44,487 nt of DNA from an uncultured archaeon (GCA_964342815.1 CAYFHS010000036.1:1-44487), one strand, 5' to 3'. Positions 4,014 through 44,171 are shown, counted from the stretch's first letter. Program-made: numbers and translations. The notes: generated from the sequence alone by a model not told the origin.

Positions 4014-4016
4014 AAT

Positions 4017-5309: not shown

Positions 5310-5383
5310 GATGATACTCCCTTATAGAAATGGCTGGATCGCAAAGCTCCCGAAATAACGAATAATATCCCGTAGAGTAATTA

Positions 5384-5563: not shown

Positions 5564-5583
5564 GTTCGTGTCCCCCTTGCTTA

Positions 5584-5802: not shown

Positions 5803-5985
5803 GGCCACCACTCCTATGGATTTTTGTGGGCTGAGATAGTACGGTATGTTTATTTATTATTATCCTCCTATTTCTTAAGGGGAATAATGAGATACGAGCT
5901 CTATTAATGAATGGGTGAATCGTGTATATCGAAGGAGAATTAAAAAAAATCCCGAATAGTCACACATAGTTTTATCGGAGGTTCC

Positions 5986-8841: not shown

Positions 8842-9125
8842 ATATGCGAAGAATGCATATGTGCAGATTAAACATGCATAAATATGCTGTTTTGGTATTG
8901 AATCCTCATCATAACGAAACAAAATATAAAATTTATTCAATAAATTATTTCAATAACTTTCATAATTTATTTCATTTAGAATCTTTGAGGGAATATATAA
9001 ATAAATATTGGGACAATACCACATAATAGTGAAAGCCAATTCCTCGAAACATTATAATTCATGCGGGATAGGATCAATATGGTCCTCCTTTCATATCCTT
9101 AGACAATTCCGGGAGATAGAATCGG

Positions 9126-9632
9126 ATGTCGAAATTAAAATCCAGTAAATTTTTTTGCATGGGGGATGAACAGGGTAATGAAAAAATTTGTGGGAAGGGT
9201 TCAAGGATAAAGACGGAAACTTCTTACATTGGACAGGATGAAATATTCAGATCAACCGTAGAGGCTGCAAAAATAACCCCCCCCGATTACTGTTTAATGA
9301 ACTTGACCCGGGTCATTCCGTGGAGTCTCATGGATGACGAGTTTCCGACCAATTCAACAAAGCATGCTTTTCCTGCGGATCGTATGAAGGATGCGGGGAT
9401 AAACCAGTCTGGGAAAAGGTTCGAAGGAAAGGGAACACATGATCCAGCATTTTTTATTTTTACAATATACGGCATTAGCTCGGAAATCCCGCTGGAGATA
9501 GGTCTGGGAAGCAAGGATTCCCCTGGCCTTTATCAGGTCAATAAGCTAACCATGGACCAGCTCGACGAGGAATTTCGGTCGTGGTGCGACAACGGGACAA
9601 AATTGGATACGAGCTTCAAGGGGGGCCTGTGA
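9126..9632 (+). CDS. Hypothetical protein coupled to the downstream histidine kinase
   Basis: 168-aa ORF, GGAGA upstream, TGATG stop/start overlap with the kinase; no recognisable motif. Confidence 0.45.
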   Translation: MSKLKSSKFFCMGDEQGNEKICGKGSRIKTETSYIGQDEIFRSTVEAAKITPPDYCLMNLTRVIPWSLMDDEFPTNSTKHAFPADRMKDAGINQSGKRFEGKGTHDPAFFIFTIYGISSEIPLEIGLGSKDSPGLYQVNKLTMDQLDEEFRSWCDNGTKLDTSFKGGL

Positions 9633-12163
9633 TGGGTGTCAAAATATTGATAGTTGAAGCTGAGCGAATAGTTGCCGATGATATCGCCTCCTGCCTCAAA
9701 GGTATCGGTTACAAGGTTTCGGGAATCGTACCGACAGGTGAACAGGCTATAGAGATTATGGAGAAACAAAACCCGGCTCTGGTTCTGATGGACGTGATGC
9801 TTCAGGGAAAGATGGATGGTATTGACGCAGCAGATGAGATCAAAAAACGATTCGGTATTCCGATAATCTTTCTTACTGCCCGCACTGACAAGGAGACCTT
9901 TGAAGAAGCAAAAAGGACCGAACCGTACGGTTACATCGTCAAACCCTTTAGAGAAAAGGATCTTCACAGTGCTATAGAAATCGCTCTCTACAAGAGTGAA
10001 ATGGAGAAAAGGATCGAACACCTCAATGCGGTACTGGCGGCTATCAGAGGTGTCAACCAGCTCATCATACGCGAGAGGGACCGTGACGTTCTGTTGAAGA
10101 GTGCCTGCGACAAGCTGATAGAAACACGAGGTTATTCCGATGCCTGGATCGTACTTATGGGCCAAGACGGACAGTTCTCGGAGATATTTGAAGCCGGGTT
10201 GAATGAGAATCTCGCTCCTTTGATGGAGCTTTTGAGGCACGAAGAGATCCCCAAATGCGCAAGGAAGGCATTGAACCAGACTGAATTGGTGGCAACTGTG
10301 AATCCTTCCATGTCCTGCAGGTACTGTCCCCTGCTTGTGAGTGAGAGGATAAAAGGCCGTCTTACGATTCGTTTGGAAACACGGGGGAACGTCAAAGGCC
10401 TTTTATCGGTATCGCTCCCATCGAATCTAGTGAGCGATGTGGAGGAACAGTTATTGTTCACGGAGCTTGCAGGCGACATATCCTTTGCACTTCATGACAT
10501 CGAGCTCGATGAAAAGCGATTATATTCAGAAAAGGAGCTTATCAGACTCAACCGCTCATTAAAGACCCTGAGCAAGTGCAACATCGCAATGGTTCATGCC
10601 ACTGATGAAAGCGCTTTGCTGGAGTATGTCTGCAAGATCATTGTTAATGCGGGGGAATACGGTTTTGCATGGGTTGGTTATGTGGAGAAAGGTGATGGAA
10701 AACTTCGTCCCGTGGCTGTTGCAGGGCCCAATGATGCTAATCTAATTGAATCGGACCTTTCGCTGGCAGATGAAGGAGGGGATGCTGTTCCGGTTAAAGA
10801 GGTTTTGAGAACGGGCAGGGCTGTCATTTCGAATATGAAAACGAAAGACCCGAGATACGAAATTCATCGCACCGAAGCTTTGAAACGAGGGTACGCTTCA
10901 TTCATGGCCCTGCCTCTTCGAGAAGGGAAATGTACGTTTGGAGTAATAAATATCTTTTCATCGGACCCCGACGCCTTCGATGCTGAAGAGGTCAAATTGC
11001 TGAAAGAGTTGAGCGAGGACCTGGCATTCGGAATTACTACGATCCGGGCAAGGCGAGAGCACAGGAATGCAGTTGAAGCTCTGCGTGAGAGCGAGGAGAG
11101 GTACCGCGACCTCTTCGAAAATGCCAACGATCTGATACAGAGCGTGGACACGAAAGGTAACTTTCTATATACCAACAAGGCCTGGAGAGAGATCCTTGGT
11201 TACGACACTGAAGAGCTGGAGAACTTATCCATATTCGATATCGTTCATACCGATTGTAGGGAGGAATACAAAAATCTATTTGGCCGGGTTGTGAAAGGGG
11301 ATGTACCGGATACAGTGGAAACAGTTTTCGTAACGAAGAAAGGGAGGCGTATAATGGTGGAAGGTTGCGTTAACTGCCGCTACGAGGGCGGAAAGGCGGT
11401 TTCGACCAGAGGTATATTCAGGGATATCACGGAGCGAAAGAGGGCGGAGGCGAAATTGAGAAAAACCCAGTCGCACCTGCTGCAATCGGAGAAGCTGGCG
11501 GGGATGGGAACCATGGCGGCAGGTATCGCTCACGAGATAAACAATCCACTGCAAGTGATAATGGGAATGTCGGAGATCATACAGGATGAGGAGAGCCTGG
11601 AACAGATCCAGGAGGATGTAGGTGACATACTGGGAGCTTCCGAGAAGATCCAGAACATCGTGAAGAACCTTTCCGTGTATTCCCGTGATGCCAAGACGCT
11701 GAAGGTTCAGCCTCTCGATCTGAACAAGGTAATAAGGAAGAGCATCAGCGTTGCAAGATATTCCTCGAATTTTCTGGATATTGGTGTGGCCCTGGATCAA
11801 GAGCGACTCCCGGTGATAGAGGGTAACCCGGGTGAGCTGCAGCAGGTATTCATCAATCTCATCACGAATGCAATTGATGCCATGGAAGAATCGGGTATTC
11901 TTTCCGTAAGGACAAGGGCCGAAGAAAACTCGATCAGGATTGAAGTGAGCGATACTGGGAAGGGAATCTCACGTGAAGAGCTTGGAAACATATTCGATCC
12001 GTTCTTCACCACGAAGGATCCCGGCAAGGGGACGGGACTGGGACTCTATGTCATTCACCAGATCGTTGGGAAATACGGTGGAGGGATCGAGGTGGAAAGC
12101 GAAGTGGGGAATGGTACAAAGTTTAGAATCGCATTTCCTGCAAAAGACACAACGAATGGATAA
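9632..12163 (+). CDS. Hybrid sensor histidine kinase (REC-GAF-GAF-PAS-HisKA-HATPase)
   Basis: N-terminal receiver (LVLMD...YIVKPF), two GAF-like segments, PAS (YRDLFENANDLIQSVD), H-box AHEINNPL, N-box QVFINLITNAIDA, G-boxes DTGKGI, FDPFFTTK, GTGLGL. Start re-placed to ATG 9632. Confidence 0.93.
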   Translation: MGVKILIVEAERIVADDIASCLKGIGYKVSGIVPTGEQAIEIMEKQNPALVLMDVMLQGKMDGIDAADEIKKRFGIPIIFLTARTDKETFEEAKRTEPYGYIVKPFREKDLHSAIEIALYKSEMEKRIEHLNAVLAAIRGVNQLIIRERDRDVLLKSACDKLIETRGYSDAWIVLMGQDGQFSEIFEAGLNENLAPLMELLRHEEIPKCARKALNQTELVATVNPSMSCRYCPLLVSERIKGRLTIRLETRGNVKGLLSVSLPSNLVSDVEEQLLFTELAGDISFALHDIELDEKRLYSEKELIRLNRSLKTLSKCNIAMVHATDESALLEYVCKIIVNAGEYGFAWVGYVEKGDGKLRPVAVAGPNDANLIESDLSLADEGGDAVPVKEVLRTGRAVISNMKTKDPRYEIHRTEALKRGYASFMALPLREGKCTFGVINIFSSDPDAFDAEEVKLLKELSEDLAFGITTIRARREHRNAVEALRESEERYRDLFENANDLIQSVDTKGNFLYTNKAWREILGYDTEELENLSIFDIVHTDCREEYKNLFGRVVKGDVPDTVETVFVTKKGRRIMVEGCVNCRYEGGKAVSTRGIFRDITERKRAEAKLRKTQSHLLQSEKLAGMGTMAAGIAHEINNPLQVIMGMSEIIQDEESLEQIQEDVGDILGASEKIQNIVKNLSVYSRDAKTLKVQPLDLNKVIRKSISVARYSSNFLDIGVALDQERLPVIEGNPGELQQVFINLITNAIDAMEESGILSVRTRAEENSIRIEVSDTGKGISREELGNIFDPFFTTKDPGKGTGLGLYVIHQIVGKYGGGIEVESEVGNGTKFRIAFPAKDTTNG

Positions 12164-12299: not shown

Positions 12300-13037
12300 A
12301 TGAGATCACATCGTTTCCTGAAGATTTTATCTTCGAAAAGTCCGGGCGTAATAACACCGGGTAGCGCAATAAAAATCACCGGTTATAATAAGGCATATGC
12401 CTACACTTATTTGAACCGCCTAGTAAATAGGGGTGAGTTGATTCGTGTGGAGAAAGGGAAATACGTGCTTCCCGGTACCACAGCACCCATAGTTGCTTCA
12501 AATCTTGTTCATCCTTCGTATATCTCATTGTTATTCGGATTGTTTATGCACCATCGAACGACACAAATACCCGTTGTTATAGATGTCATCTCACCAGTCT
12601 CAAAGAGGGAGATCGATTATAATGGATATAACATCTCCTTTGTCAAGTTCCCTCAAAGAAGGATTTTTGGGTATGCATCCGAACGAGCGGAGGGAAATAT
12701 GGCCCTGTCCCTCGGTTCCTTGGAAAAGGTCATAATTGACTGTTTGTATCTCCCAAAATATTGTCCGTTACAGGAAACATATTCAGCTATCCGGGAGGGT
12801 GTGGATGTACCGAGACTGATCGAAACCGGAATAAGAATGAGCTCAGGCATCACTCTGAAGAGATTGGGATACATCCTGGATACAATTGGTATCGACATCC
12901 ACGAAGATATCTCGAAATATATAAATTATAAATTCGATCCGCTGGATCCCATATCATCTACCAATGGAAGTGATGTGATCAAGGATCGGAAGTGGCATCT
13001 ATTGATCAATACAATTCTAAAAACTAAGGAGATATGA
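12300..13037 (+). CDS. Type IV TA antitoxin, AbiEi family transcriptional regulator
   Basis: N-terminal wHTH (LNRLVNRGELIRVEKGKY), SYISL...GL, SLEKVIIDCL motif; 4 nt upstream of an AbiEii-type gene. Confidence 0.87.
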   Translation: MRSHRFLKILSSKSPGVITPGSAIKITGYNKAYAYTYLNRLVNRGELIRVEKGKYVLPGTTAPIVASNLVHPSYISLLFGLFMHHRTTQIPVVIDVISPVSKREIDYNGYNISFVKFPQRRIFGYASERAEGNMALSLGSLEKVIIDCLYLPKYCPLQETYSAIREGVDVPRLIETGIRMSSGITLKRLGYILDTIGIDIHEDISKYINYKFDPLDPISSTNGSDVIKDRKWHLLINTILKTKEI

Positions 13038-13041
13038 GATC

Positions 13042-13803
13042 ATGATGAATAGAAGCGACCTTGGAAATATCATACATCCGTTTATTCTCACACTTGGCCA
13101 GAAAGAGAAGGATTACCTTCAACATATCATCTTATTATACATATTTAAACACAGTGACGACTCGTTGATCTTCAAGGGCGGCACCTGCATGCAGAAGGTA
13201 TATGGACTGAACCGTTTCAGCGAGGACCTGGACTTCACAATTAACCGAGAAATAGATGAAGAAAAGCTTGTAGCAAAGGTCGTAAAGGGTCTTCGATATC
13301 ATGGTTTTCCCTCTGAGATCGAAATTAAAAAACACGGGATCAATACCGGAATCAGATTTCTCATTCACGGTCCGCTATACGTGGGAACACGTCGTTCTAT
13401 GTGCTCTCTGAAAATGGACGTGAGCAGGCGGGAAAAAATTATTATGGATTCCGAATCAATCACAGTTTATCCCATTTATGATGAAATATTCCCGTATCTT
13501 GCCTTATGCATGAATAAAATGGAGATACTTTCGGAGAAGATCAGGGGGATTATGACCAGAGATACAACTCGTGACCTGTACGACCTGTTTTTTCTTATCA
13601 AGAAAGGAGTAGAGCCGGACATGAACATGGTGAACGAGAAGTTGAAATTCTATGATATGATGTTCGAGATGACGAGATTTGAAACCGCAATAGGAAAACG
13701 AGGGACGACCTGGGGAAGAGAGATTCGGAAATATTCTTCGTTCAGCTTGGATTTTGGAGAGGTTTCCCATACTGTTATCGGGTCTGTAAAAGAAGCGCTG
13801 TGA
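13042..13803 (+). CDS. Type IV TA toxin, AbiEii/AbiGii nucleotidyltransferase
   Basis: FKGGT...RFSEDLDF, EK(IRGI) and RDLYDL motifs. Confidence 0.92.
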   Translation: MMNRSDLGNIIHPFILTLGQKEKDYLQHIILLYIFKHSDDSLIFKGGTCMQKVYGLNRFSEDLDFTINREIDEEKLVAKVVKGLRYHGFPSEIEIKKHGINTGIRFLIHGPLYVGTRRSMCSLKMDVSRREKIIMDSESITVYPIYDEIFPYLALCMNKMEILSEKIRGIMTRDTTRDLYDLFFLIKKGVEPDMNMVNEKLKFYDMMFEMTRFETAIGKRGTTWGREIRKYSSFSLDFGEVSHTVIGSVKEAL

Positions 13804-15330: not shown

Positions 15331-16251
15331 ATGGATATAAATAAATTAATGAATAAAAACATACTTAAGGATCTCCGCTCTGTACTGCTGGAACGGACCC
15401 GCCTCGATAGCCTACCCGAAAGCACTTGGAAGCGGATGTCCGCTCTCAACACCTGGGGAACCAATGCCATTGAGGGCAGCACCGTCACGAGGGAAGAAGC
15501 TGAGTGTCTTGTGATCGATGGAACTAGCATTAAGGGTAAGCCTGTCGCCGAGGTTCTGGAGACGGTCCAGCACGAACGGGTGTTTCGTTCGCTTCCAAGC
15601 CTGACAAGTCGCGATATATCGCTTGAGACGATCCTTGGAATGCACGAGCAGGTCTTCTTCGGTATTTTTCAGGACGCAGGCCAGTGGAGAAGGGTCAACG
15701 TACGGATAAAAGGTGCTTCCTTCACCCCACCAAGAATGGAGAAAGTGGTTCGTGAACTTGAGAAATGGACGGCGGAGTATCGGCAGCGTGACATTGATGG
15801 TGAGGATACTTTCCTTCTAGGCGCCCGAATGCATTTCGATCTTGAGCGGATTCATCCCTTCAGCGACGGTAACGGAAGGATCGGAAGACTTCTTTTAAAT
15901 CTTCATTTTCTGATGCGGAACTGGCCTCCTATCCATGTTCTTCCGGAGCATCGGAAGGAGTATCTCGACGGGTTGAATTTTTCTCATACCGAAGGCGATC
16001 TATCATCTCTCGTTTACCTTTTCGAAAAGCTGATGGGCGCTAGCCTCCTGGACCTTCTGGACGAGGTGGGAACTTCTGAGGACGAGCTGATGACATTGAA
16101 AATGGCGGAGAAACACTCGCCATATTCTCACAATTATATCGCCCTTCGATGCAAGCAGGGAATGCTCCCTGCAGTGAGACGGACGGGAAATAAATGGCTA
16201 ACGAGCGGAAGAGCACTGCGGTTGTACGGTGATCACGCTGGGAGACGTTGA
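15331..16251 (+). CDS. Fic/AMPylase with N-terminal inhibitory helix and C-terminal HTH-like domain
   Basis: Canonical HPFSDGNGRIGR; inhibitory (S/T)xxxE(G/N) motif TNAIEG; C-terminal excisionase-like segment (YIALRCKQGMLPAVRRTGNKW). Confidence 0.92.
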   Translation: MDINKLMNKNILKDLRSVLLERTRLDSLPESTWKRMSALNTWGTNAIEGSTVTREEAECLVIDGTSIKGKPVAEVLETVQHERVFRSLPSLTSRDISLETILGMHEQVFFGIFQDAGQWRRVNVRIKGASFTPPRMEKVVRELEKWTAEYRQRDIDGEDTFLLGARMHFDLERIHPFSDGNGRIGRLLLNLHFLMRNWPPIHVLPEHRKEYLDGLNFSHTEGDLSSLVYLFEKLMGASLLDLLDEVGTSEDELMTLKMAEKHSPYSHNYIALRCKQGMLPAVRRTGNKWLTSGRALRLYGDHAGRR

Positions 16252-16540
16252 TGTTCCGAAATTAAGGAAACCTTTGAAAAAACAGTTGAGGAACCTCATC
16301 TCGACCGGAGAGCTAATGTCAAACATATCCGATAACGGGAAACTGCCAGCTTGCCGGCAAGAATCGGAACCAGTTCAAGATGTGATCTTCTACAGTCGTA
16401 AGTCACTTTTTATCACCACAGTACTATGTCGGTTTTGTGTGCTTGATTTATGAAATTTGTGCAGTTGATTGCATTAATTTATTAAAAAGTGTGCAGTTTG
16501 TTGGGAATGTTTAAATATAAGTTTCTCCCCTTTGTACTGT

Positions 16541-17836
16541 ATGAAACCAGGGAACTTACAGACCGTTATTATCGATCAAATGGAAGATACGAAAAGGATT
16601 TTCAGCTCAGAGAATATTATTGAACGAGAATTCTTTTATCATTGGGACAATGTTATATCTACTGATCTGGTAAAGGTCATCTACGGTGTGAGGCGATGCG
16701 GTAAATCGATATTTTCATTCCAATTATTGGAGCAGAGAGAATCAGCATATATCAATTTCGATGATGAGCGTCTTGCAGGAATAAAAACAGATGACCTCGA
16801 CGAAGTGGTCCAGGCATTTTATCAAGTTTATGGCGATACGAAATATATTTTGCTGGACGAGATCCAGAATATCCCTGGCTGGGAATTATTCGTCAGCCGC
16901 TTAATGAGACAAGGATTCAATGTTGTTATAACCGGAAGCAGTGCCAATCTGCTAAGTAAAGAACTTGCCACACATCTCACAGGCAGATATCTTCCCCTAG
17001 GGATATTTCCATTTTCATATCGGGAATTCCTTGCATACAGGGGGATACGAATTGAGAAGGAAAAGATATTAGGCACCCGTACGAAATCGATACTTATGAA
17101 GAACCTATATGATTACCTTGAAACAGGTGGATTTCCTGAGGCATTGAAATATCCGGATTACCGTAGAAAATATTTATCCACTCTCTATTCCGATATAATA
17201 TCCAAAGATGTTGTGGGTCGATTTAATATCCGATATATAAGGACATTGAAAGATATCGCCAATTATGTCATTTCCAATTTTTCCAATTTAATGACATATA
17301 ATCGGATCAAAAATAAATTTGAATTGAAAAGCGTACATACTGTCAAGAATTACCTTTCATATCTAGAGGATGCTTCCATTATTATCATGGTGGATAAATA
17401 TTCCTCTAAACACAGGGGTCGGATTGTCTCACCGAAGAAAGTATATGTCGTGGACGTAGGGGTGGCACAGGCCGTAGCGTTTTTTATATCAAAGAATTTC
17501 GGCCTGCTCATGGAAAATATAGTCGCAATAGAACTTTTTAGAAAGAAGGCTCAAGATCCAGCTATCGAACTGTTCTATTGGCGCGATTATCAACAACATG
17601 AAGTTGATTTTATAATAAAACGCGGGCAGAACATTGAGCGATTGATACAAGTATCGTATGCCAACTCAGATGACGATATCAACAAGCGAGAGATACGTGC
17701 ACTATTAAAAGCTTCAGAAGATCTAAAATGTGGCGTACTTACAGTCATTACCTGGGACTATTTGGATGAACGAGAAATTGCCGGAAAGGACATCCACTTC
17801 ATTCCACTATGGCACTGGCTTTTCACCAGCCAATGA
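16541..17836 (+). CDS. AAA_14 ATPase with DUF4143 / PD-(D/E)xK-like C-terminus
   Basis: GVRRCGKS, YINFDDERL, LLDEIQ, ITGSS, GGFPE, KKVYVVDVG, ENIV, EVDFII. Confidence 0.92.
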   Translation: MKPGNLQTVIIDQMEDTKRIFSSENIIEREFFYHWDNVISTDLVKVIYGVRRCGKSIFSFQLLEQRESAYINFDDERLAGIKTDDLDEVVQAFYQVYGDTKYILLDEIQNIPGWELFVSRLMRQGFNVVITGSSANLLSKELATHLTGRYLPLGIFPFSYREFLAYRGIRIEKEKILGTRTKSILMKNLYDYLETGGFPEALKYPDYRRKYLSTLYSDIISKDVVGRFNIRYIRTLKDIANYVISNFSNLMTYNRIKNKFELKSVHTVKNYLSYLEDASIIIMVDKYSSKHRGRIVSPKKVYVVDVGVAQAVAFFISKNFGLLMENIVAIELFRKKAQDPAIELFYWRDYQQHEVDFIIKRGQNIERLIQVSYANSDDDINKREIRALLKASEDLKCGVLTVITWDYLDEREIAGKDIHFIPLWHWLFTSQ

Positions 17837-33832: not shown

Positions 33833-36800
33833 TCATTTCCTAGGTATCAACCAAGACAGCCGCCAGCCAATCCCGAGAACGGCAAATACCGCAACCACGA
33901 TCAGTCCGATTATGCCGAATTCCGAGACCTGAGAATCCTTATCTTTTTCCTCCTTCCCGGCCACTTCGTTGATGATAATTGTCCCCTTCAAAGTCGCCTC
34001 GTTCCCCTCGATGTCTTTTACCTTTACAGTCACCGTACATGTTCCGGGATATACTTCAAGAAGATCGATATCGAAAAGATAATTTTCACCCACCTTCTTT
34101 GCCTGCAGCTCACGGACGAAGCCCGGTCCCTTCAACATTAGCGATACCTCTTTGATGATGGACAAGTCCGTTGCGGAAACCGTCAATTCGAGACGGTCAT
34201 CAACCGAATACTGTTTTCCATCGATATCCTCTTTTATCTCGATCTCCGGCGCCGTGGTATCCCGAATGTCTATCCCCAGTATCTCCGTGCTTGTCCTCTC
34301 CTCCAGGTCCGTTGCCCTGAGAGCGAACTGGAAAAAACCCGTGGTTAGCACAGACACATCCGGACGATATATGAACAGGCTGCTGAGAGGATTGTAATAA
34401 TCCGTTCCGTCATTCCACGTTTCGCCGTCATTGAGGGAAAATTCCACATCCCCCGGCTCCGTATCCCACCGTATCTCCGCCTTTATGAGAATTTCCTCAC
34501 CATACTCGATCACTGAATGGTCGGCGGGTTCGAGAAATACTATTACTGGCGGTCCTTTTTCGATGATGACCGGCTCTTGAAGTACGAAATATCTTTTGTC
34601 CGTTACGGTATTTCCCGACGTGTCTGCGGCTTCTATCTCCAGCAGATGCTTCCCGTCATCCATACCGGTGGTATCCAGCTCATATCGATATTCGGCCCCG
34701 TTCAAGGAATTCAGTATGTCAATCCCCTCGCCGTCAACCAAAAGATATAATTCTCCAATTCCAACGTTGTCCCGCACGGTTCCGTTAACCAGAAGAATTT
34801 CACCCGTGGTCAACTCCCTGTAATTCTCCGGATTTATAATATTCAATTGAGGCAGCTCAGTGTCAGGCTTCTTTTTCAGGCTGAACTGCAATCCATCGGT
34901 TCCGGACAGCTTTGCCGTATCCAATGCCCTCACCGATAGATTGTATCCTCCTACAGCATACCCCGAGGTGTTAAGCTCGAAATCGAAATTGCCGTCTGAA
35001 AAAGTGTGAAGAATGTCGAATGTGTCAAAAATGCCCATGCCGTCCACCTTCAATTCCAGTTTTTCGATCTCGTCCGTTTCCACCACACCCTTCACCCCGA
35101 TCAGTGCTCCCAGATAGAAAGAGCTGCCGTCGGAAGGCCTGGAAATGTCTACCTTCGGGGGTACGAAGGACGATATAATAACGGTGACTGAGTCCACCAC
35201 CTCATGGCCGAGCTCATTCCTCGCCATTATTGACAGAACAACCTCACCTTCCTCCAGGATTCCCGCTGAAATTACGTAGGAAAATTTGCCTCCGTGAAGA
35301 TATGGTTTAAGATCAATGGTTCGTGCGCCGAAGCTGAGGTTCAGAATAGTGATATTACCTCTGTCAAGCGCAGTACCGCCTATGGTAATATCATCGTCAA
35401 GGGTGAACACCCCGCCATCCGCCGGACTGGTGATGGATAGGAAAGGTCGGTCCTCCACTAATCGCGCGAGTATCATTTTCACCCGTACTATTTTGTATGT
35501 CTCAAGCTGATCGCACCCGCTCAGCATGAAAAATAACTTTTGTCCGCCATTGCTGAATATTTCCCCGGTATACGATTTTTCGTCAGAAGCGGCACGGTAG
35601 CACTCGGCTCGGAGGTTCGCCATTTTCCGTCCCATTTCTCTTTCCGGCAGGATGGCGAAATCCATGTGAAGCCCACCTTCGACGAGATGTGTGTGGACAG
35701 AGCCCGTGTTCGCATTTGGCGGTCTTTGATATGCGGATACAACCTCCATCTCATAAGAAATACGCCATGTTCCACCGGAGGGTGCTTCAACCTCGCGAAA
35801 AACGGGTCTCGGCCGGGGTTTTCTTCCCTCGAGGGTGATGTTGAACTCGTAACTCTTTCCACTGCCGATATAGGTCTTTGTCACTGCTCCGTTACCGAGT
35901 TTTGATATAACCTTCATGGATATGTTATTGTTGCACAGGGTGAACCTCGCTATTCCATGGGAATCGGTGTAGTTCCATATGCTGGGAAAGGGCGCCGTCA
36001 CGGGCGTATCGCCGGAGTGCTCTATAAGCCAATGACTTCCTATCACCACTCGGGCGCCGTCTACCGGTTCACCATCCCGATCCATGACTTTTACAGTAAC
36101 GTCAGACAAGAACTCCTGGGGAACGTAATCCGTAGTCACATCCTCGACCATGTCATTGCCGTGCCATTTGTATAATCCGGAACCCCCTCTTCCCCCCCAT
36201 CCGTACCAGTAGTTACCTTGATTATCTATCACGCTTCCGCTGTCGCTCCAGTAGTTGTCCCACTGATGCCAGCCCCTCTCCCAGAACTCGATCCATACGT
36301 GATCTTCCCCAAGCATGATTATGCCGGATGCCGGTATCAGAGCGGTGCGTGCGGCGGCAATGGTTAGGTCCTGAAGCTCGCCGCAGTTCCCGTTGTGGCT
36401 GCTTGCAATGCGCACGGGCTGTATTGGTCTTTCGTCGTCACTAACTTCCTGCTGGTTCAGAATAAGGGTCTTGCCGACCCAGTTCGAAACCCTAATAACG
36501 GCATTATCACCATAATCCGCCCGTCTCCCCCCTGGGGCCATGTGTGTGGTGCAGTTGAAAAGAACGTTTACCCCACTCAGCAGATCTCTTAAGAGAGGGG
36601 GATAAATGTTCGTGGGATATTTATCCGAGTCGTCGGCAGGGTCCGGGTCCTTGGGATAAGCCGAATCATTGTGATTGAAAAGGTATTCCCTCCAGAATCT
36701 GCCCTTTCCCCTGGGATACGGCAAGGCAGTCCCTCCGGTTTCGGGATCGATATACGCCGGATTCTCTTCGGTAACCTTTGGATGAACTATGAATTTGTAA

Positions 36801-38299
36801 TATATATCCCGGGGCAGCGTGATCTCCATGGGAGTTCCGTTGTCCAGTACCCGGTAGCGGGTGGTGGTATAGTAATCGCCGGACCCGAAATCTCCCACCT
36901 CCAGCAGATCAACGTAGGCAAGAAGGGGGGCGGTCCGGTAAATGTACTCGGCATTCTCAAGGAACATTTTCGGTATTACTTCATTCAATAAAAGCACGTT
37001 GTCACTGGTGTACGCGATTGAAGCTGCGATCTCGTCCACAAGATTTTCCGAGCAGGAAAGTAAAAGCTCCGCAAGATCTGAAATTCCTTTCCCGTCCACT
37101 ACTTTCAAAAGCTCATTTGGGGGATAGTACGACATTCCGGGCCATACTTCGTAACTGGAGGATATGCGGTAGTCCGGGGAGACCGAAGTACCCGTGTTAT
37201 CATAGAAAAAAATCCTGCGCAGGGAAGAGGTGAGGACCAGGTCATAAAGCTCGTCCGTTTCCAGGACTGCAATGGAGGGATCCAGGTTGTCCTCCGCATT
37301 TATTCCGGCAAACAGCGTAAGATCGTTGATGGTGAACAACGGATTGGTGGAAGTGCCCAAATTTGGCAGATGATGAAGTGTTCCGGATGCGGAGCCCACG
37401 ACGATGTCCCAATCGCCGTCTGCATCGAGATCTCCTCCGCCGGGACGTGCGGAATCACCAACGTCGATCCCTGCAAATACCAGAGGATTCCGGTTGAACT
37501 CGCCAATATTTCCTGTGGCCCGATTCTCCCAGTAATCGAGAGTTCCCTCCACCCTGCCGTGTACCAGGTCCGCATAACCGTCATTGTTCAGGTCCACCAG
37601 ATAGGGCGATAGACTGTTTCTTATGTTACCGATGGAAACAAAATCAAATACGGGAGTGAATCTCGTCCCGATGTTTTCAAAATAATAAATTTCACCCCAC
37701 CTTACAACCGCCAGATCCAGGTCCCCGTCCCCGTCCATGTCCCCCAGGGAAGGTTGGGTGAAATACCCCCCGTCAAAATTCCCCGCAGTATCGAACAGCA
37801 TTCGGTCCCACGAAAAGAGCGAGACATGTCGCGTCCCGTGATTTTTGTAGAGGTTTATACCTGTAAAGTTTGTACCCAGCATATCGTTATCACCGTCGCC
37901 GTCCAGGTCGCCGAAGGCGATTTCGATCTCCTCGAGATTGAATGATTGTATGCCGGTATAGGCGAGTTTTCTCGATAGATTATTACGAATCCACACCGGT
38001 CCCCTCATAACCGCTTCCTGAGCTCGAGGGCTCAATGCCGCCATGTAGTCCAGCTCGTCGGTAACGCTCAAGCTACCGGTGTCATTGTCGAATCGGATAA
38101 AGGTCTGGCTTCCCTTCTCCACCACGAGGTCGGTTTCCAATCGATCGACTTCCATCCATGTACTGTTATCCCCTGATCGGGAAATTGCTACGGGAGGATA
38201 CGTACTTTTTCCAATGGCGAAAGAAGTCTGCATGAAGACCGAAATTGTGATTATGATGGTAAACCAAAATTTCCATTTACATTCTGAAGAAAATACCAT
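33833..38299 (-). CDS. Large membrane-anchored surface protein: FG-GAP repeats, transglutaminase-like core, Ig-like repeats
   Basis: Signal-like N-terminus; repeats GDLDGDGDND, GDMDGDGDLD, VDLNNDGYAD, GDLDADGDWD; triad-like GNCGE / DHVW.E / WD; repeated ITSP.DG/ISRPSDG/INPEN Ig-like units; C-terminal TM. Confidence 0.87.
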   Translation of the reverse strand: MVFSSECKWKFWFTIIITISVFMQTSFAIGKSTYPPVAISRSGDNSTWMEVDRLETDLVVEKGSQTFIRFDNDTGSLSVTDELDYMAALSPRAQEAVMRGPVWIRNNLSRKLAYTGIQSFNLEEIEIAFGDLDGDGDNDMLGTNFTGINLYKNHGTRHVSLFSWDRMLFDTAGNFDGGYFTQPSLGDMDGDGDLDLAVVRWGEIYYFENIGTRFTPVFDFVSIGNIRNSLSPYLVDLNNDGYADLVHGRVEGTLDYWENRATGNIGEFNRNPLVFAGIDVGDSARPGGGDLDADGDWDIVVGSASGTLHHLPNLGTSTNPLFTINDLTLFAGINAEDNLDPSIAVLETDELYDLVLTSSLRRIFFYDNTGTSVSPDYRISSSYEVWPGMSYYPPNELLKVVDGKGISDLAELLLSCSENLVDEIAASIAYTSDNVLLLNEVIPKMFLENAEYIYRTAPLLAYVDLLEVGDFGSGDYYTTTRYRVLDNGTPMEITLPRDIYYKFIVHPKVTEENPAYIDPETGGTALPYPRGKGRFWREYLFNHNDSAYPKDPDPADDSDKYPTNIYPPLLRDLLSGVNVLFNCTTHMAPGGRRADYGDNAVIRVSNWVGKTLILNQQEVSDDERPIQPVRIASSHNGNCGELQDLTIAAARTALIPASGIIMLGEDHVWIEFWERGWHQWDNYWSDSGSVIDNQGNYWYGWGGRGGSGLYKWHGNDMVEDVTTDYVPQEFLSDVTVKVMDRDGEPVDGARVVIGSHWLIEHSGDTPVTAPFPSIWNYTDSHGIARFTLCNNNISMKVISKLGNGAVTKTYIGSGKSYEFNITLEGRKPRPRPVFREVEAPSGGTWRISYEMEVVSAYQRPPNANTGSVHTHLVEGGLHMDFAILPEREMGRKMANLRAECYRAASDEKSYTGEIFSNGGQKLFFMLSGCDQLETYKIVRVKMILARLVEDRPFLSITSPADGGVFTLDDDITIGGTALDRGNITILNLSFGARTIDLKPYLHGGKFSYVISAGILEEGEVVLSIMARNELGHEVVDSVTVIISSFVPPKVDISRPSDGSSFYLGALIGVKGVVETDEIEKLELKVDGMGIFDTFDILHTFSDGNFDFELNTSGYAVGGYNLSVRALDTAKLSGTDGLQFSLKKKPDTELPQLNIINPENYRELTTGEILLVNGTVRDNVGIGELYLLVDGEGIDILNSLNGAEYRYELDTTGMDDGKHLLEIEAADTSGNTVTDKRYFVLQEPVIIEKGPPVIVFLEPADHSVIEYGEEILIKAEIRWDTEPGDVEFSLNDGETWNDGTDYYNPLSSLFIYRPDVSVLTTGFFQFALRATDLEERTSTEILGIDIRDTTAPEIEIKEDIDGKQYSVDDRLELTVSATDLSIIKEVSLMLKGPGFVRELQAKKVGENYLFDIDLLEVYPGTCTVTVKVKDIEGNEATLKGTIIINEVAGKEEKDKDSQVSEFGIIGLIVVAVFAVLGIGWRLSWLIPRK

Positions 38300-38371
38300 T
38301 GGGCATCGTGGCATTAATTATTTCTATATACCTAATAATCTTTTGGTCGCAAATTGATTACCATATAATAT

Positions 38372-39619
38372 TCATTTCAATGTTCCGCCGTTAATCATAC
38401 TCGTTACTGCTTTTGTCACGGGATCGGCGCCGTATCTTTTCCTGTATGAGGTAGCAATGTTCAGCGTCTGGTACTGGGTCCATATCTCCACCTCTTCCCG
38501 GATCCCCCTGAGCTGCTTTTCCCTGCTTTCCGGAGCTTCCCAATGAACGTCGCTGTATTCAACAAGAGTGCATTTGAAATCGACCTGGTGGTTCACGAGC
38601 TGCTCTTCAGCGAAGTGCAGATGCTCCATTATTACCTTGGTGGCAATATCCGCATGGTTTATGAGATTGCACGCGAAGAACAGGGGCATTCTTTTCTTGT
38701 AGAACCATTTCAAAAGTTCCAGTTTTTCGAGGACTTTTCTGTCCTTCAAAGCCGGCCCCGATACAGGGTTCCGTTCTTCAGGTGTATTGTCCCCCGAGAG
38801 AACGCCTTCGAAGGAAATCCTCATGGGGAGGCGGCCCATGTCCTGCAGTATAATGGAAGAAACCTCCGAATCCATTCCGGACCGACCGGGAATCCTATGT
38901 TCTACCAGCCACCTTTTCCCGTCCATCACTACGTTCTCCACGGTGTTTATCTTCAGTGATTTTATACCTTTGACGAAATCTTTCAGGTCCGAGGAGCTAT
39001 TCCCCGAATTATCTCCCCCTTTCCTCATCTCTTCCAAAGCTCCGATCAATTTCTCCATTCCCCCGATCACCTTCCCGATCTCCAGCTCGAAATCCGAAAG
39101 GGGAGTGCTGCACCCACCATCATTGCAAACCGCTTCCACCCGTTCCATGAGGTTCCAGATATATTTTCCGAAAGGACTTATACTTGTACCATCCATACCC
39201 GCCAGCAGAGTGTCCAGTTTGTTCACATCGTATTCTGACACGATTCCGGGGCCGGAGCCGTGGTCCGGGCATTCCGTTCTCACCAAACTTATCCATTTCC
39301 CGCACTGACTGCAGAACGCCTCTGGCAGGATATCTCCGGTCAATCCTTCCTTGGAGAATACCTCGTGAAATTCGTCTGCGATCTCGCCCCATGCCATATC
39401 GGAATTCAAATTATTGAGATTCATTTTGCCGATCCACTCTTCCTTTTCCTCTTTTTTCAATATCTCGTCCAATTTACTCAAACTGTCTTTCAGCGACACC
39501 TCGCAATCGTCTATCCTTTCATTTGCAAGGGTAACTTCTTCTACTGCCCTCCTGGCATCTTCCGTGGCTGCCGAAGATGAACTGCCGCTTTCCTCTTCAG
39601 GGAATCCTAACCATATCAT
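38372..39619 (-). CDS. Phage-tail-like protein (tube-initiator/DNA-circularisation-N-like C-terminal domain) with zinc-ribbon N-terminal extension
   Basis: LVEHRIPGRSG...LQDMGRLPMRISFEG...FKCTLVEY pattern; CSQC...CPDH; ATGA overlap with the upstream gene. Confidence 0.65.
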   Translation of the reverse strand: MIWLGFPEEESGSSSSAATEDARRAVEEVTLANERIDDCEVSLKDSLSKLDEILKKEEKEEWIGKMNLNNLNSDMAWGEIADEFHEVFSKEGLTGDILPEAFCSQCGKWISLVRTECPDHGSGPGIVSEYDVNKLDTLLAGMDGTSISPFGKYIWNLMERVEAVCNDGGCSTPLSDFELEIGKVIGGMEKLIGALEEMRKGGDNSGNSSSDLKDFVKGIKSLKINTVENVVMDGKRWLVEHRIPGRSGMDSEVSSIILQDMGRLPMRISFEGVLSGDNTPEERNPVSGPALKDRKVLEKLELLKWFYKKRMPLFFACNLINHADIATKVIMEHLHFAEEQLVNHQVDFKCTLVEYSDVHWEAPESREKQLRGIREEVEIWTQYQTLNIATSYRKRYGADPVTKAVTSMINGGTLK

Positions 39620-42600
39620 CGGAACACCAACCCATGTCTCTTAGCTTCCTCTTCAATCATAACTTCGATTATCTCATACAAGCCTTTTTTCTCAATCTCT
39701 TCCGTAATTTCTCTTTTATCCGCTCTACTTTTTTGATCCTCTCCCCTCGATTTTATTTTCTCATTCTTTGATCCTTTCATTGTTAGATCCAGTAATTTCA
39801 ATTCTCTTAATCGCTCTAGTGACTTTAAAAGAGTAATATCGGACCCTTCTCGAGGAAGGTCAGGGCCCAAGGATGTTACTCCAGGGGGAGAGCTCATATT
39901 CTCATGATCCTGTTGAGTCCTTTCCTCAGGAGATAATCCCTGGGAGGGGCCGGGCGGGACTTCCGCTAAAGTTGTAAGGGAAAACTTTTTTTGGGGTACT
40001 GATTGCCATTGTGTGACTCCTTTATCAACGGCAGAATTGAAATTTACATCCCTGAAATATATATTCGCCGCCTGCTCTCTTATTTTTTGTACTGCAGGCG
40101 TCACTATATCCATGGCTTTCTCTATATCATAAGGCTCGCTCGTAAAATGTTCTTTCTCAATACTGTTCTCTATCACCGATTTAAGTTTTCCCTGATCTAT
40201 TGAAAAGAAATTCAATATTTCCATGGTTCTCAAGGGTTCAAGAAGCTTCTCATCGAGTTTTGGGTAATTTATAATGCCTGAATTTTTTTCAGCGGGGGGT
40301 ACAAATGGCAAGCTGGTTTTAGTAGTCCTTTTTTCTGCGAATATCAAAGGCGGAATTCTTCCATTTGTTTTTTTTAGTTCTGTAACATGATCTAATGAGT
40401 GCTGTGTGGATTCAGGCAGCTGGCTCTCGAGCGCGGGTATTTTTCCACGTCCCTCAATATTCAGTATTTCCAGGTTTCCCGATTCAATTTTTATGACCGC
40501 AGCCTCCACTTCGCGATTGTCTGTTGAAGATGACATGTCCTTTCCCACTATTTTCGCTTTTGGCGGTTCAACGTGCTTTTTCGCTGTTGTGGTGGATGAA
40601 ACAATCTTCCTATGGTCGTTGAGGTCAATGAAGCCCGTGAGAAATGGATTATCGTTATCAGGAACAGACGGTGTTTGGTGCAGAGGGGAAATGGATGAAT
40701 ACTTATCCTTTACTCCCTCCGGAATTATCGGTTTAATTTGTACTTTACTATCATCCGGAAGGTCACTTATGATACTTTCCTTATTCAGTTTCCGTCTCGG
40801 AATATTTCCAGGTGATATTTTTTCAATGGATCCGGGCGGGACCGGGGAAATCTTCGAGTCCGTTTTTTCAGCATTTGTACGGCCGCCCTTTCGATGATCT
40901 ACGCGGGGTAATTTTCGGGATAATGCATCGGATGGGGTTGTTCCGTCATATGTAGTTGAGGTAAGGTTTCCAGGAGTCTCTGCTCTTGAGGGTACTTTTG
41001 AAGCTACCATTTCTCCATTATTAATTGCTGTGTTTTGAGTAAAATCCTCCAAGTTCTCACGAAAGGAAATTTGTTCATCCGTTATATTGTTGATGATATC
41101 GTTCTTCGTCCTCAATCCAAGTCCGAAAGTACCGCTGGCAGCATCCGATAACATGGAAAGAGCCGTGCTAGGGACCCAAGGAGTTTCCGGGGATTCACGT
41201 TGGGCAGTCCTGTGGGTTTTTATAGATCGCCCCTTTGTAGAAGAGTTTCGAATTCTATCAATGTTGGACTTGTGTTTTTTCGGTTCGAAACCGGGCTCAC
41301 CCTGGTAGCTTATTATTTGCTTTGTCGCGCCTGTACTTTTCAATCCATTTTCTGTTATATCTTTGGGACACAGCGAAGCCAGTGTGATGGGGGGTTCCCT
41401 GCTAATGGGTCGTTGAGATTTAATTGTAGTCGGCATCTCCGTTTCATCATGTATCCCTTCCTTTTTTCCGGATATGGGCTTCAACGGCGCACTTCGAATA
41501 TTTTCAACTCCACTGTCATCTAGCGGAATATGCTCCGTTGAAGGCATGAACTGTTTTTCTTTTACAACTTTCAGGGTGCTTTCATCCGAAGGAAATTCCA
41601 GTTTTTCGCTTCCCGCTGGTGTTTTTCTTTCCTGAATACGGGCCAAACCGTTCATTTCTGTTATGGTGCCACTTTCATGAGCGGGGGATATAATATCGTT
41701 ACTTGGCGGTTCCGTGGCAAACTCTGGTTTTATTCTTGGTGGTTTTATTTCCATTGGCGGGACAACAGTGCTGTGGATCATTGTCACAGCCGCGGCTCCA
41801 CCCATCATGGATACGGCGCTCTTTGGTATTGACGCATAACGAGGTTCCGATCCAGGGGACAAACTTGTTTCAATCCGTTCTTCACTTATTTCTCTGTCTT
41901 TTTCAAGATTTATTCCCCCATCACTATACTGCACGGTTTCTTTTTCCGGTCCCTTAAAACCCGTTTGTAATGAGCCCGCCAAAAGTCCCAAAGCACCAGC
42001 CTTGCTTTGAGCGAATTTATTTTTTCCAGCTGTTTCATGTTCCATTTTCAAGGTTGATTCGGTGTGAGTTCCACTCAATTTCTTCGTTGTTTTTGCAGTC
42101 TCTTTATACCGCGTATTCGCTTCTCCATTATGTTTGTGAAATTCGTTCCCGTCCATTACTAACGGAGTATTACCATCGGCGTTTTCGGGGACATGCGGTT
42201 GAAGTTGCTCCAATTTTGTTCCGGGATATTGATCGTAATCCTTAGTGGTTATCAAGGTTTCAGGCAGCCCCTGGTCTCCAGGGACCGGGGAAAACAGAGG
42301 CGATTCGCTGTGTTCTTTTACTTTCTGTCGCAGCACGTCGAATGACGCGCTAAAAAGACCTTTTTCGTTCTGCAGTCCTCCCGATACCCTGCTTTCTGTC
42401 TCAGTGGAATTTTTCTCCGTATCGAGAGAAGGGGCAGGTGGTCGAATCCCGGCCCTTTTCACCATAATTTCCTCGTTCTTTCTCATAATGTCGAAGATAT
42501 TATCATATTCCTGCCAAACACCCTGGATCCTGCTGTGAATATCTTGGATCATAAAATTTAATTTTTCCAACTCCAGGCTCTCTAACCTGACTGCCGAGAA

Positions 42601-42771
42601 CGCTTCTTCCATTGCCGCCAGATCGACTTTCAGTCCGTTCTGTCCATTGTTCAGTCGCTGAATGGCTTTCAGCTCGTTATTGTTAAGAATATCCGAATTG
42701 TACAAATGATCACGAGTGATATCAACAAGGCCGTCAGCCTCCATTAACGGACGTTTAAGAAGTGACATCAT
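39616..42771 (-). CDS. Large low-complexity protein ending in an EEAKRHG motif, typical (from recall) of injection-system loci
   Basis: 1051 aa, N-terminal coiled coil, S/T/P/E/K-rich body, C-terminus IIEVMIEEEAKRHGLVFR. Confidence 0.7.
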   Translation of the reverse strand: MMSLLKRPLMEADGLVDITRDHLYNSDILNNNELKAIQRLNNGQNGLKVDLAAMEEAFSAVRLESLELEKLNFMIQDIHSRIQGVWQEYDNIFDIMRKNEEIMVKRAGIRPPAPSLDTEKNSTETESRVSGGLQNEKGLFSASFDVLRQKVKEHSESPLFSPVPGDQGLPETLITTKDYDQYPGTKLEQLQPHVPENADGNTPLVMDGNEFHKHNGEANTRYKETAKTTKKLSGTHTESTLKMEHETAGKNKFAQSKAGALGLLAGSLQTGFKGPEKETVQYSDGGINLEKDREISEERIETSLSPGSEPRYASIPKSAVSMMGGAAAVTMIHSTVVPPMEIKPPRIKPEFATEPPSNDIISPAHESGTITEMNGLARIQERKTPAGSEKLEFPSDESTLKVVKEKQFMPSTEHIPLDDSGVENIRSAPLKPISGKKEGIHDETEMPTTIKSQRPISREPPITLASLCPKDITENGLKSTGATKQIISYQGEPGFEPKKHKSNIDRIRNSSTKGRSIKTHRTAQRESPETPWVPSTALSMLSDAASGTFGLGLRTKNDIINNITDEQISFRENLEDFTQNTAINNGEMVASKVPSRAETPGNLTSTTYDGTTPSDALSRKLPRVDHRKGGRTNAEKTDSKISPVPPGSIEKISPGNIPRRKLNKESIISDLPDDSKVQIKPIIPEGVKDKYSSISPLHQTPSVPDNDNPFLTGFIDLNDHRKIVSSTTTAKKHVEPPKAKIVGKDMSSSTDNREVEAAVIKIESGNLEILNIEGRGKIPALESQLPESTQHSLDHVTELKKTNGRIPPLIFAEKRTTKTSLPFVPPAEKNSGIINYPKLDEKLLEPLRTMEILNFFSIDQGKLKSVIENSIEKEHFTSEPYDIEKAMDIVTPAVQKIREQAANIYFRDVNFNSAVDKGVTQWQSVPQKKFSLTTLAEVPPGPSQGLSPEERTQQDHENMSSPPGVTSLGPDLPREGSDITLLKSLERLRELKLLDLTMKGSKNEKIKSRGEDQKSRADKREITEEIEKKGLYEIIEVMIEEEAKRHGLVFR

Positions 42772-43207
42772 TAACCGACTCGAATTGTGACATTATGGGT
42801 AGTAATATACCATATATATAAAACTCGCCCGCTTCTTGGAAAACTATTGTATAAATTGAAAAAGGACCATTCAAAAAAATATAGGTTCGGAGGAAATTCG
42901 TTTTCCCTTATAGATTCTGTGTACAAAGAAAATTTGAAACGAGAGTCATGGTATGCCAAGCCGAAGAAACCGATGATTATTACAATATGGGTTCAATACA
43001 CCCAGCTGCGGATGGGACCATATTGTAATGAATGAAGAACCGTCTTGAAAATTGCCGTAATACCCTGCAGCTTGCTGCGAAGTGAGCAGAGCGAACGATG
43101 GGATCGGCAATTTTAGGTTCTTCAAATTTATTCAGAATTTTCTCATATACTGGAAACCGTCTCAAAACCAATGGATATGACAAACTGGTGACACCATTGA
43201 ATCGGTT

Positions 43208-43609
43208 CTACTCTTCTCTAACCCTGATTGCCGACCAGGTATACGTTGTCACCGCATATCCGTGAGCGTCCAGGGAGAATTCTCTGTCGTCCACGTGTAC
43301 TTCGTCGAATGTCATCTTCTTCAATGTGCTCTCGACGCTGGGCATGAAAGCATCCAGAGGCATGGCTACTACAATTTGGAATGTAGTGTCCGCCTCCATA
43401 TGTTCATTTAATAATTTGCTGTTTGAGTGCACCATTATTTGTCCACGGACGTGCAATTTCCCGTACGAATACCCAAAGGTCTCGTGGGATCCGATGGCGG
43501 GGATCTCCTTTTTGTCTTTATAAACCTTGAAAGTGAATCCCTTTATTCCGGGTATAGGTTGTCCGTCGAATAATATCTCTACTTTGTTTGCTGTTACGAT
43601 CTCTGCCAT
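43208..43609 (-). CDS. Putative phage tail tube protein (XkdM-like)
   Basis: 133 aa from ATG 43609 (AAGGTG RBS); beta-rich pattern ILFDG..I.G...EIPAIG...G...V.G.I...TFDEV...F...Y.W.A.RVREE. Confidence 0.7.
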   Translation of the reverse strand: MAEIVTANKVEILFDGQPIPGIKGFTFKVYKDKKEIPAIGSHETFGYSYGKLHVRGQIMVHSNSKLLNEHMEADTTFQIVVAMPLDAFMPSVESTLKKMTFDEVHVDDREFSLDAHGYAVTTYTWSAIRVREE

Positions 43610-43886
43610 AAACACACCTTTTTCTTTTGATACAGCTTGGGGTTCCTGCTCCGCCCCTGAGATAAATGTAATAACACATAACTTATATATATAAATTTTC
43701 ATGAACAGTGGAAAACTACATATATTACCTTTACTGAATAATCGAAAATTTTTCTTGAGAGTTTATTGCTTCTACATATTATTCGAAAATTGTAATACCT
43801 ATCACCTTGAAAGAATTACAGATAAAACCATTTATATCCAGTTCCCCGTTATTGATACTATAAGTTAATAAGCGTGAGATGTGATA

Positions 43887-44171
43887 ATGAAAACACGAAC
43901 AATGGTAATTGTTCTAAGTTTGATTGGACTTTTTCTGCTTTTCGGGTACACTGCTGCCTACGTCATACCTGATAATGAGCTGGGCATAGGATGTGGAATT
44001 CGAGGGTCCTGTAGTGTAAAGCAAGTGAGCGGTGCTTCCACATATTGCGGTGCTAATGGCGGAAATGCTGAAAACTGCGATAATTACGATAATGGTTGCG
44101 GAGAATACGAAAACGAGTGCCCGAATTCCGAGGAATGTCCTGAAAACAGTGAGAACTGTACCGAATTTTAA
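43887..44171 (+). CDS. Small secreted or anchored Cys-rich acidic protein
   Basis: MKTR plus hydrophobic helix; 8 Cys in the mature part with E/N-rich xxC repeats. Confidence 0.6.
   Translation: MKTRTMVIVLSLIGLFLLFGYTAAYVIPDNELGIGCGIRGSCSVKQVSGASTYCGANGGNAENCDNYDNGCGEYENECPNSEECPENSENCTEF

Follow-up and report, generated by a model that had tools for sequence, protein, structure and literature searches.

A phage tail-like tube cassette in a marine Thermoplasmatota archaeon: probable module of a contractile injection system dispersed over the chromosome

The window analysed here is the entire 44,487-bp contig C36 (GCA_964342815.1 CAYFHS010000036.1:1-44487) of a metagenome-assembled genome (MAG), G000, which consists of 116 contigs totalling 4.35 Mb and is 88.9% complete with 3.2% estimated contamination. 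The host is a marine oxygen-minimum-zone Thermoplasmatota archaeon. Near one end of the contig, 0.8 kb from its terminus, lies a cassette of three phage tail-like genes that probably forms the tube module of a contractile injection system (CIS) whose other parts are encoded elsewhere in the same chromosome. Four open reading frames (ORFs) run co-oriented on the minus strand, at 43702/43609..43208, 42771..39616, 39619..38372 and 38314..33833. An earlier note, made from sequence alone, had described the first three as a tube-like gene, a gene for a protein of 1051 amino acids (aa) and an ATGA-coupled gene for a tube-initiator-like protein, and all three are present as described: the tube-like product ends AIRVREE, the 1051-aa product ends EEAKRHGLVFR, and the third ORF begins within the stop of the second (ATGA, 39619-39616). 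A tblastn search of the whole MAG found no second copies of the three proteins. Relatives carry the labels 'Thermoplasmatota archaeon ETNP2_MAG_1' and 'uncultured archaeon'.

The tail-tube gene (43208..43609, minus strand) encodes 133 aa, corresponding to residues 32-164 of the translated ORF P0001. The start is placed at 43609, where it is preceded by GGTG; the homologues are all 133 aa long and begin MAEIV or MPEIV. A longer, 164-aa version of the ORF starting at 43702 was rejected because its ATG falls inside a TATA-like box and none of the homologues has that length. An AlphaFold model of the tube protein built on its homologues (pLDDT 74.7) was compared with known structures using Foldseek and matches the tubes of phage 812, diffocin, PVC, AFP, SPP1 and a gene transfer agent (GTA) as well as Hcp (E 3e-5 to 1e-3, prob 1.0, TM score 0.5-0.6), with phage 812 and diffocin at the top. 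By sequence alone the protein matches phrog_365 'tail protein' (E 7e-4), and an exhaustive HMMER search collected a family of 75 representatives at E<=1e-3. A 37-member profile of this family matches the diffocin tube CD1364 (weakly, E 2e-3) and XkdM in the PDB over nearly their full length, and 12 of the 37 members match PF18906 (Phage_tube_2) and five PF09393 (DUF2001/XkdM). The predicted fold and the profile matches together identify the 133-aa product as a putative tail tube of the Phage_tube_2/XkdM side, and the doubt in the earlier note as to whether this gene would have a tail-tube fold can be set aside. Identity to the tube proteins of relatives is 77-99%; the contigs that carry distant members of the family measure 2-4 kb and are too small to reveal gene context.

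The second gene (39616..42771, minus strand) encodes the tape-measure-like protein of 1051 aa, which has structured ends and a middle of about 900 aa rich in proline, glycine, serine and threonine. The protein is hydrophilic, its enrichment in these four residues extends from about residue 100 to residue 1000, and it belongs to no Pfam or PHROG family. Its homologues are 1006-1495 aa long and keep a C-terminal ...EAKR[HY]GLV[FL] motif. A canonical tape measure is a long, helical protein with its C-terminus in the hub. Length and C-terminal motif suit such a role, whereas composition and sequence divergence do not. The gene lies where tails encode the tape measure, with the tube on one side and on the other the initiator, to which it is ATGA-coupled, and from this position the protein may act as a tape measure or lumen filler.

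The third gene (38372..39619, minus strand) encodes a protein of 415 aa (P0003), and the tube-initiator-like character that the earlier note had given it is upheld by the model (pLDDT 67), whose N-terminus is a long coiled coil and which also has a small beta unit, further helices and a beta domain at residues 208-358. That domain matches the ring domain of Mu gp43, Afp7, Pvc7, Cis7 and Dit and also superposes on Alg7; its structural matches are almost only baseplate chains, a diffocin baseplate chain being the top one. PF07157 (Mu gp43, DNA circularisation protein N) reaches 13.6 bits on P0003, below the family cut-off of 21; a family profile returned nothing meaningful from the PDB, and a repeated word-index search, this time querying with the alignment of the initiator, recovered the same 16 proteins only. 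The modelled fold thus predicts a tube initiator or baseplate-hub ring protein carrying a tube-like domain. The N-terminal half lies outside all alignments to Afp7, Pvc7, Cis7 and Mu gp43. It contains invariant residues C103, C106, C117 and H120 (CxxC...CxxH) in the small beta unit between the coiled-coil helices, and this extension of about 200 aa, coiled coil plus zinc ribbon, aligned to none of the tip rings of Mu gp43, Dit or lambda gpM. The order tube, long protein, initiator, with its ATGA coupling, is that of tails.

No sheath, baseplate, spike, capsid or integrase gene had been seen in the window, and Pfam searches agree, returning no further tail, capsid or integrase gene among the 30 other window ORFs; ARAGORN finds no tRNA in the window. 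The other core parts were sought by family searches of the whole MAG, with exactly one match per part, and sheath, baseplate J and PAAR/spike, which the earlier note had proposed to look for, are present in G000 on other contigs. The sheath is a single gene on contig 10, on its own strand and beside ScpA/ScpB; it matches PF04984 (Phage_sheath_1, 42-43 bits, cut-off 31.4), PF17482 (Phage_sheath_1C) and phrog_279 (E 5e-26), and a phmmer search of the PDB gave no match. Contig 1 encodes a wedge consisting of a gp25-like sheath initiator (Sheath_initiator PF10934, 34.5 bits, cut-off 32.9), a Baseplate_J protein (PF04865, E 1e-30) and an I-like baseplate protein of 381 aa (phrog_1160, E 2e-12). Contig 52 carries a gpV-type spike with DUF2345-like repeats (Phage_base_V, 24.9 bits in the genome search against a cut-off of 23.8, and 22.3 on the called protein) and a PAAR protein (E 5e-26), directly followed by a gene for a 469-aa TPR protein (contig 52:385-1794; L018), possibly with a role as adaptor, chaperone or partner of an effector.

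A three-gene cassette on contig 8 (17643-19449; L039:12644-14450) is a candidate only for a fifth module, perhaps a terminator or fibre. It encodes proteins of 246 aa, 158 aa and 188 aa, the last with a Big_1/invasin Ig domain. The 246-aa protein belongs to no PDB or Pfam family and has a sheath-like insert with 26% identity to the sheath (E 1.7e-4). Seven strong matches to this first gene all lie in the CIS-bearing families f1, f3 and f8, with one weak match outside them (G037, E 1.8e-4) and none found in f4 or f5.

Three of these parts have concordant relatives of known structure. The Baseplate J protein matches phage 812 ORF62 (E 2e-14) and diffocin CD1371, with E values between 6e-11 and 2e-14. 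Tube, J and initiator thus concur on diffocin, phage 812 and XkdM, which points to descent from a single ancestral PBSX/diffocin-type myovirus tail rather than from the Afp/PVC lineage. HK97 capsid (PF05065), Terminase_6N (PF03237) and Phage_portal (PF04860) gave no match over cut-off in G000, in G001, which is a MAG of the same genus, or in G002, a MAG of a sister genus (3.1 Mb, 40 contigs), so that on present evidence the system is headless. No lysis genes were recognised beside any module. The markers of other CIS types were also sought. Neither the T4 gp19-type tube PF06841 (at E<=1) nor the Pvc16_N cap PF14065, for which the control was silent too, has a match in G000; no Phage_GPD hub (PF05954) was found in G000, G001, G002 or G004, and no Afp15-type ATPase in any module. 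The TssC/VipB sheath PF05943 likewise has no match in G000, the membrane complex and ClpV of type VI secretion systems (T6SS) not having been searched for. The earlier suggestion of an extracellular CIS (eCIS)-like locus must therefore be qualified: the Afp/PVC markers sought, gp19-type tube and Pvc16_N, were not found, and the nearest relatives of known structure are diffocin, PBSX and phage 812.

The modules of G000 lie on five contigs (36, 10, 1, 52 and 8), and the same partition is seen in sister genera. In G002 the tube module is located at 176 kb of the 251-kb contig 1, the sheath at 22 kb of the 151-kb contig 6, J at 65 kb of the 93-kb contig 12, PAAR on the 61-kb contig 18, and the contig 8-type gene on yet another; the MAG of a further sister genus, G003, is likewise split. 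The three genera agree in what each module contains, down to a C25-peptidase gene next to gp25 and the TPR gene that follows PAAR, the TPR protein being 65-78% identical in G002 and G003 in equivalent position; the sheath adjoins ScpA/ScpB in two genera. In relatives the cassette encodes proteins of 133 aa, about 1060-1190 aa and about 423 aa and occupies differing chromosomal settings: between L18e/L13/S9/RpoN and Nog1/iPGM on contigs of 410-483 kb, or, in another relative, next to exonuclease VII, CN-hydrolase and Rce1, while one further relative has a contig fully syntenic with the window. The idea that these genes belong to an ordinary prophage split by the assembly was rejected, the three-gene unit lying mid-contig in chromosomal contigs of 250-480 kb in relatives with nothing tail-like beyond the cassette. 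DNA upstream of the cassette in G001 is the counterpart of G000 contig 48 (exonuclease VII and neighbours), which shows what continues past the end of the window contig; it holds no tail gene.

More distant families show other arrangements. In G005 (family f3) two sheath genes and a tube gene share one 13-kb contig, the long gene and initiator being elsewhere, and this arrangement is an intermediate, less dispersed state. In G014 (f8) it is the tube gene that is solitary, at a distance from the long gene and initiator. We also note that the G005 contig (contig 59; L030) reads, over 3916-10615, sheath (535 aa), 143 aa, sheath (463 aa), 265 aa, an opposite-strand gene and tube; that the 265-aa protein has a weak match to a tail-assembly-chaperone PHROG; and that the G005 genome holds at least four full-length tube copies.

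Among 41 relatives, the initiator is found in 8 genomes, the tube in 7, the sheath in 9 and J in 8, counts that express consistency and are not statistics. All four parts are confined to families f1, f3, f4/f5 and f8, and are absent from all 24 genomes of f7 save for one weaker Baseplate_J match (G030, E 1.3e-15). Across the phylum the tube family occurs in 7 of 401 genomes sampled. The modules are under purifying selection: non-synonymous divergence (dN) is 0.08-0.4 with synonymous divergence (dS) saturated, and dN/dS where computable is 0.12 for the initiator and 0.05 for both the sheath and the TPR protein.

The three-gene cassette, the sheath, wedge and spike/PAAR genes elsewhere in G000, and the phyletic co-occurrence of these parts with the cassette lead us to favour a split injection system, which is one of the possibilities that the earlier note had raised. 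Its suggestion of a tube-only filament is not favoured, as a conserved sheath travels with the tube. We consider it probable that this cassette supplies the tube part of a CIS dispersed over the chromosome, one closest to diffocin/PBSX-type tails and with its genes distributed among small transcription units, of which there would be at least four and probably five. By analogy with contractile tails of known structure, the modules would assemble into one machine as follows. Six copies of the 415-aa protein would form a ring, seated on the tip made of the contig 52 spike and PAAR proteins, and template the first tube layer. The 1051-aa protein would dock in the hub via its C-terminal EAKRHGLVFR and fill the lumen during polymerisation of the 133-aa tube protein around it, and the gp25-like sheath initiator and J/I-like wedge of contig 1 would start polymerisation of the lone sheath of contig 10. 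Contraction would then drive tube and spike into a target.

A number of observations weigh against this interpretation. All the genomes are MAGs, and the relatives are kin and not independent samples. Among the parts expected of such a machine, no tail terminator or cap, fibre or ATPase was recognised in G000. The long protein is unlike helical tape measures in containing 7.4% proline and 6.3% glycine, with 37 aa as the longest stretch free of both, and it has evolved very fast, with no more than 10-30% identity among homologues even in cases where the tubes share 88%. G001 is a counter-example (L019:8373-11254): it has kept the initiator and, after it, the surface-protein gene, but lacks the tube gene and some 870 residues of the long gene, and no Baseplate J was found in that MAG. 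What remains of the long gene is a C-terminal part of 178 aa, 37% identical and with the same ...EAKRHGLVFR end, that precedes the intact initiator; the replaced segment holds an AAA_21/AbiEii-like fragment. Unless G001 is mis-assembled, these losses indicate that at least one lineage can dispense with the system or is losing it.

Four other explanations were weighed, all of which we consider less probable. An ancient tail may have been broken up and its pieces separately exapted for unrelated functions, for example as a sheath-less tube or filament made of tube, long disordered protein and ring and perhaps tied to the FG-GAP/transglutaminase surface protein encoded next to the cassette. Such a history would accommodate the cassette's own promoter-like boxes, the 1493-aa surface protein after the cassette in four lineages, the non-canonical N-terminus of the ring protein with its coiled coil and zinc ribbon, the composition of the long protein, which is not tape-measure-like, and the separation of the tube from the tape-measure protein (TMP)-initiator pair in f8. 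We nevertheless regard it as unlikely, as sheath, wedge and spike/PAAR are intact under purifying selection in the tube-bearing genomes, a co-occurrence that independent functions would not predict, and the surface protein is not beside the cassette in L004/L005 and L011. A dispersed domesticated virus tail, GTA-like or PBSX-like, with head genes too divergent for the Pfam models used, appears less likely again. Known GTAs have dispersed loci, tube and J are nearest to PBSX-, diffocin- and phage 812-type tails, and the head search covered three families only in a genome that is 89% complete; yet capsid, portal and terminase stay without a match over threshold in three MAGs (G000, G001 and G002), and a PAAR tip with a TPR partner is more typical of injection systems than of tails that deliver DNA.

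The intactness of all the ORFs, and a tube that is 77-88% identical across species despite saturated synonymous sites, are difficult to reconcile with decaying prophage debris scattered by rearrangements and devoid of present function. Module order and the split itself are conserved across three genera, neither an integrase nor an att-like tRNA occurs among the window ORFs, and the head-gene searches in the same three MAGs were negative. This explanation, which has in its favour the deletion of the tube and most of the long gene in G001 and the repetitive extragenic palindrome (REP)-like hairpins and toxin-antitoxin/defence genes around the cassette, is accordingly very unlikely in our view. 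Most improbable of all is a binning or assembly artefact that has joined modules from different organisms or from a co-binned virus. The MAG does consist of 116 contigs with some estimated contamination, and the cassette does lie close to a contig end, but in relatives it is flanked by archaeal L18e/L13/S9/RpoN and Nog1 on 410-483 kb contigs, the sheath is beside ScpA/ScpB in two genera, the window itself holds PAN, Lhr and other host genes, and the layout is repeated in four independent MAGs.

Compared with known systems, the dispersed CIS proposed here has its best sequence and fold relatives in R-type tailocins and PBSX tails (diffocin CD1363-CD1371, XkdK/XkdM/XkdS/XkdT, phage 812), with which it shares a CD1364/XkdM-like tube (a weak match, E 2e-3), a CD1371/XkdT-like J, a Sheath_initiator of the PF10934 family and the lack of any head genes found. 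Those tails are encoded in one contiguous cluster together with lysis and regulatory genes, whereas the archaeal genes described here occupy at least five loci that are tens of kb or more apart. The archaeal set further differs in its PAAR tip, its disordered rather than helical long protein, the zinc-ribbon/coiled-coil extension of its ring protein, and in that no fibre or terminator was recognised. With the eCIS (Afp, PVC, AlgoCIS), the Streptomyces CIS-Sc and the Anabaena tCIS it would have in common a headless sheath-tube-baseplate-spike-PAAR architecture. It differs from eCIS in having no PF06841 tube, no Pvc16_N match (the control being silent), no Afp15-type ATPase in the modules and no gene cluster. 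From T6SS it is set apart by its sheath, which is of the Phage_sheath_1 type and not TssC/VipB.

The only experimentally characterised archaeal CIS is the T6SS-like system of Halogeometricum borinquense, which is headless, toxin-carrying and a host function located on chromosome or plasmid (PMC11566945). The haloarchaeal CIS is a clade IIa eCIS-like system encoded in one cluster, cis1-16, with two subclusters 8.7 kb apart and no recognisable tape measure (PMC11566945); the system proposed here belongs to a different phylum and differs further in its tube family and its dispersed layout. Archaeal CIS published so far are clustered (PMC11566945). One paper lists a sheath homologue from Thermoplasmata but gives no context for it (PMC9230969), and our literature searches turned up no account of a dispersed CIS from Thermoplasmatota. 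Published eCIS catalogues give loci or gene clusters (PMC12210884; PMC11566945), and metagenome surveys also give CIS as gene clusters (PMC12210884). A scattered gene set such as this one would probably escape those catalogues.

A stronger version of the dispersed-CIS interpretation can be framed, namely that a working injection organelle has long been kept in several marine Thermoplasmatota families as a regulon of at least five unlinked loci, with a hypervariable disordered lumen protein in place of the helical tape measure and a zinc-ribbon initiator ring. We advance this tentatively, as a serious possibility to which we give somewhat less than even weight. CIS, tailocins and T6SS are catalogued as gene clusters, and clustering is usually read as a sign of phage origin and mobility. 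If this version is correct, the system would be, among known CIS, the first to have wholly lost operon-like clustering, and it would represent a class probably missed by catalogues that report clusters. More generally, a CIS with its core genes (tube module, lone sheath, wedge, spike/tip) dispersed among housekeeping genes, yet intact and inherited together across genera, would mean that a host chromosome can absorb a machine of this kind completely, and that surveys probably undercount them, in archaea especially. Thermoplasmatota would then be the second archaeal phylum with CIS after the haloarchaea, through an uncultured oxygen-minimum-zone lineage. The disordered tape-measure-like protein and the zinc-ribbon initiator raise questions as to how tube length and initiation would be set.

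Signals that may govern transcription of the cassette were read directly from the DNA. A TATA-like box, 'ATG AAA ATT TAT ATA TAT AAG', lies upstream of the tube gene and contains the ATG of the 164-aa ORF; the corresponding box with a transcription factor B recognition element (BRE) and TATA likeness, TTTATATATATAAG, at 43680..43697 (minus strand), was also picked up as palindrome I2 and may be the tube promoter. A second TATA-like box, TTTTATATATATG, is situated at 42811..42824 (minus strand), some 40-50 nt upstream of the start codon (42771) from which the 1051-aa protein is read. The 436-bp gap between the tube and TMP genes contains two perfect hairpins (42979..43114, minus strand), one with a 12-bp stem (42979-43029) and the other with a 10-bp stem (43048-43114), which may act as a terminator after an abundant tube transcript. 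Given the second box and the hairpins in the gap, the tube is probably transcribed apart from the TMP-initiator pair, as a separate unit. On other contigs, the sheath gene and the spike gene are each preceded by an A-rich plus TATATATA box resembling that of the tube; apart from such generic boxes, no shared regulatory motif specific to the four modules was seen in their upstream regions. A tail-assembly chaperone or frameshift gene in the gap was considered and rejected: the gap holds two short ORFs in different frames as well as the hairpins, and in relatives it can be as short as about 200 bp, varying in length from 0.2 to 1 kb, which argues that no conserved chaperone gene resides there.

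The cassette is bordered by two further genes. As the earlier note had claimed, the gene upstream of the tube is divergent (43881..44171, plus strand); it is real and conserved, its 96-aa product being 59% identical to that of a 99-aa gene in equivalent position in L042. The product has a signal/transmembrane-like hydrophobic N-terminus and an acid-rich tail abundant in Cys, Asn and Glu, matches no Pfam family, and is a conserved neighbour and not a tail gene. Downstream, the 1493-aa surface protein gene (33833..38314, minus strand) encodes, according to Pfam, FG-GAP, a transglutaminase core and four Big_7 domains together with a C-terminal transmembrane segment. The P0018 contig, L042 and G001 have a homologue after the cassette, while L004/L005 and L011 have none at that position. 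We treat this gene as a co-oriented neighbour, at most a candidate part of the injection system. The loci of sheath, wedge and spike (contigs 10, 1 and 52) are likewise flanked by large surface proteins of the FG-GAP/PKD kind, but G000 is rich in such proteins.

The rest of the window contig carries host genes, for PAN ATPase, Lhr helicase, histidine kinases, AbiEi/AbiEii, Fic, a hybrid-cluster protein, hemerythrins and HxlR. Within it an AbiEi/AbiEii toxin-antitoxin pair lies at 12300-13803, a Fic/DOC protein at 15331-16251 and an AAA_14/DUF4143 ATPase at 16532-17836. A second AAA_14/DUF4143 gene is located on contig 1, directly after the gp25-J-I module (L016:13961-15274).

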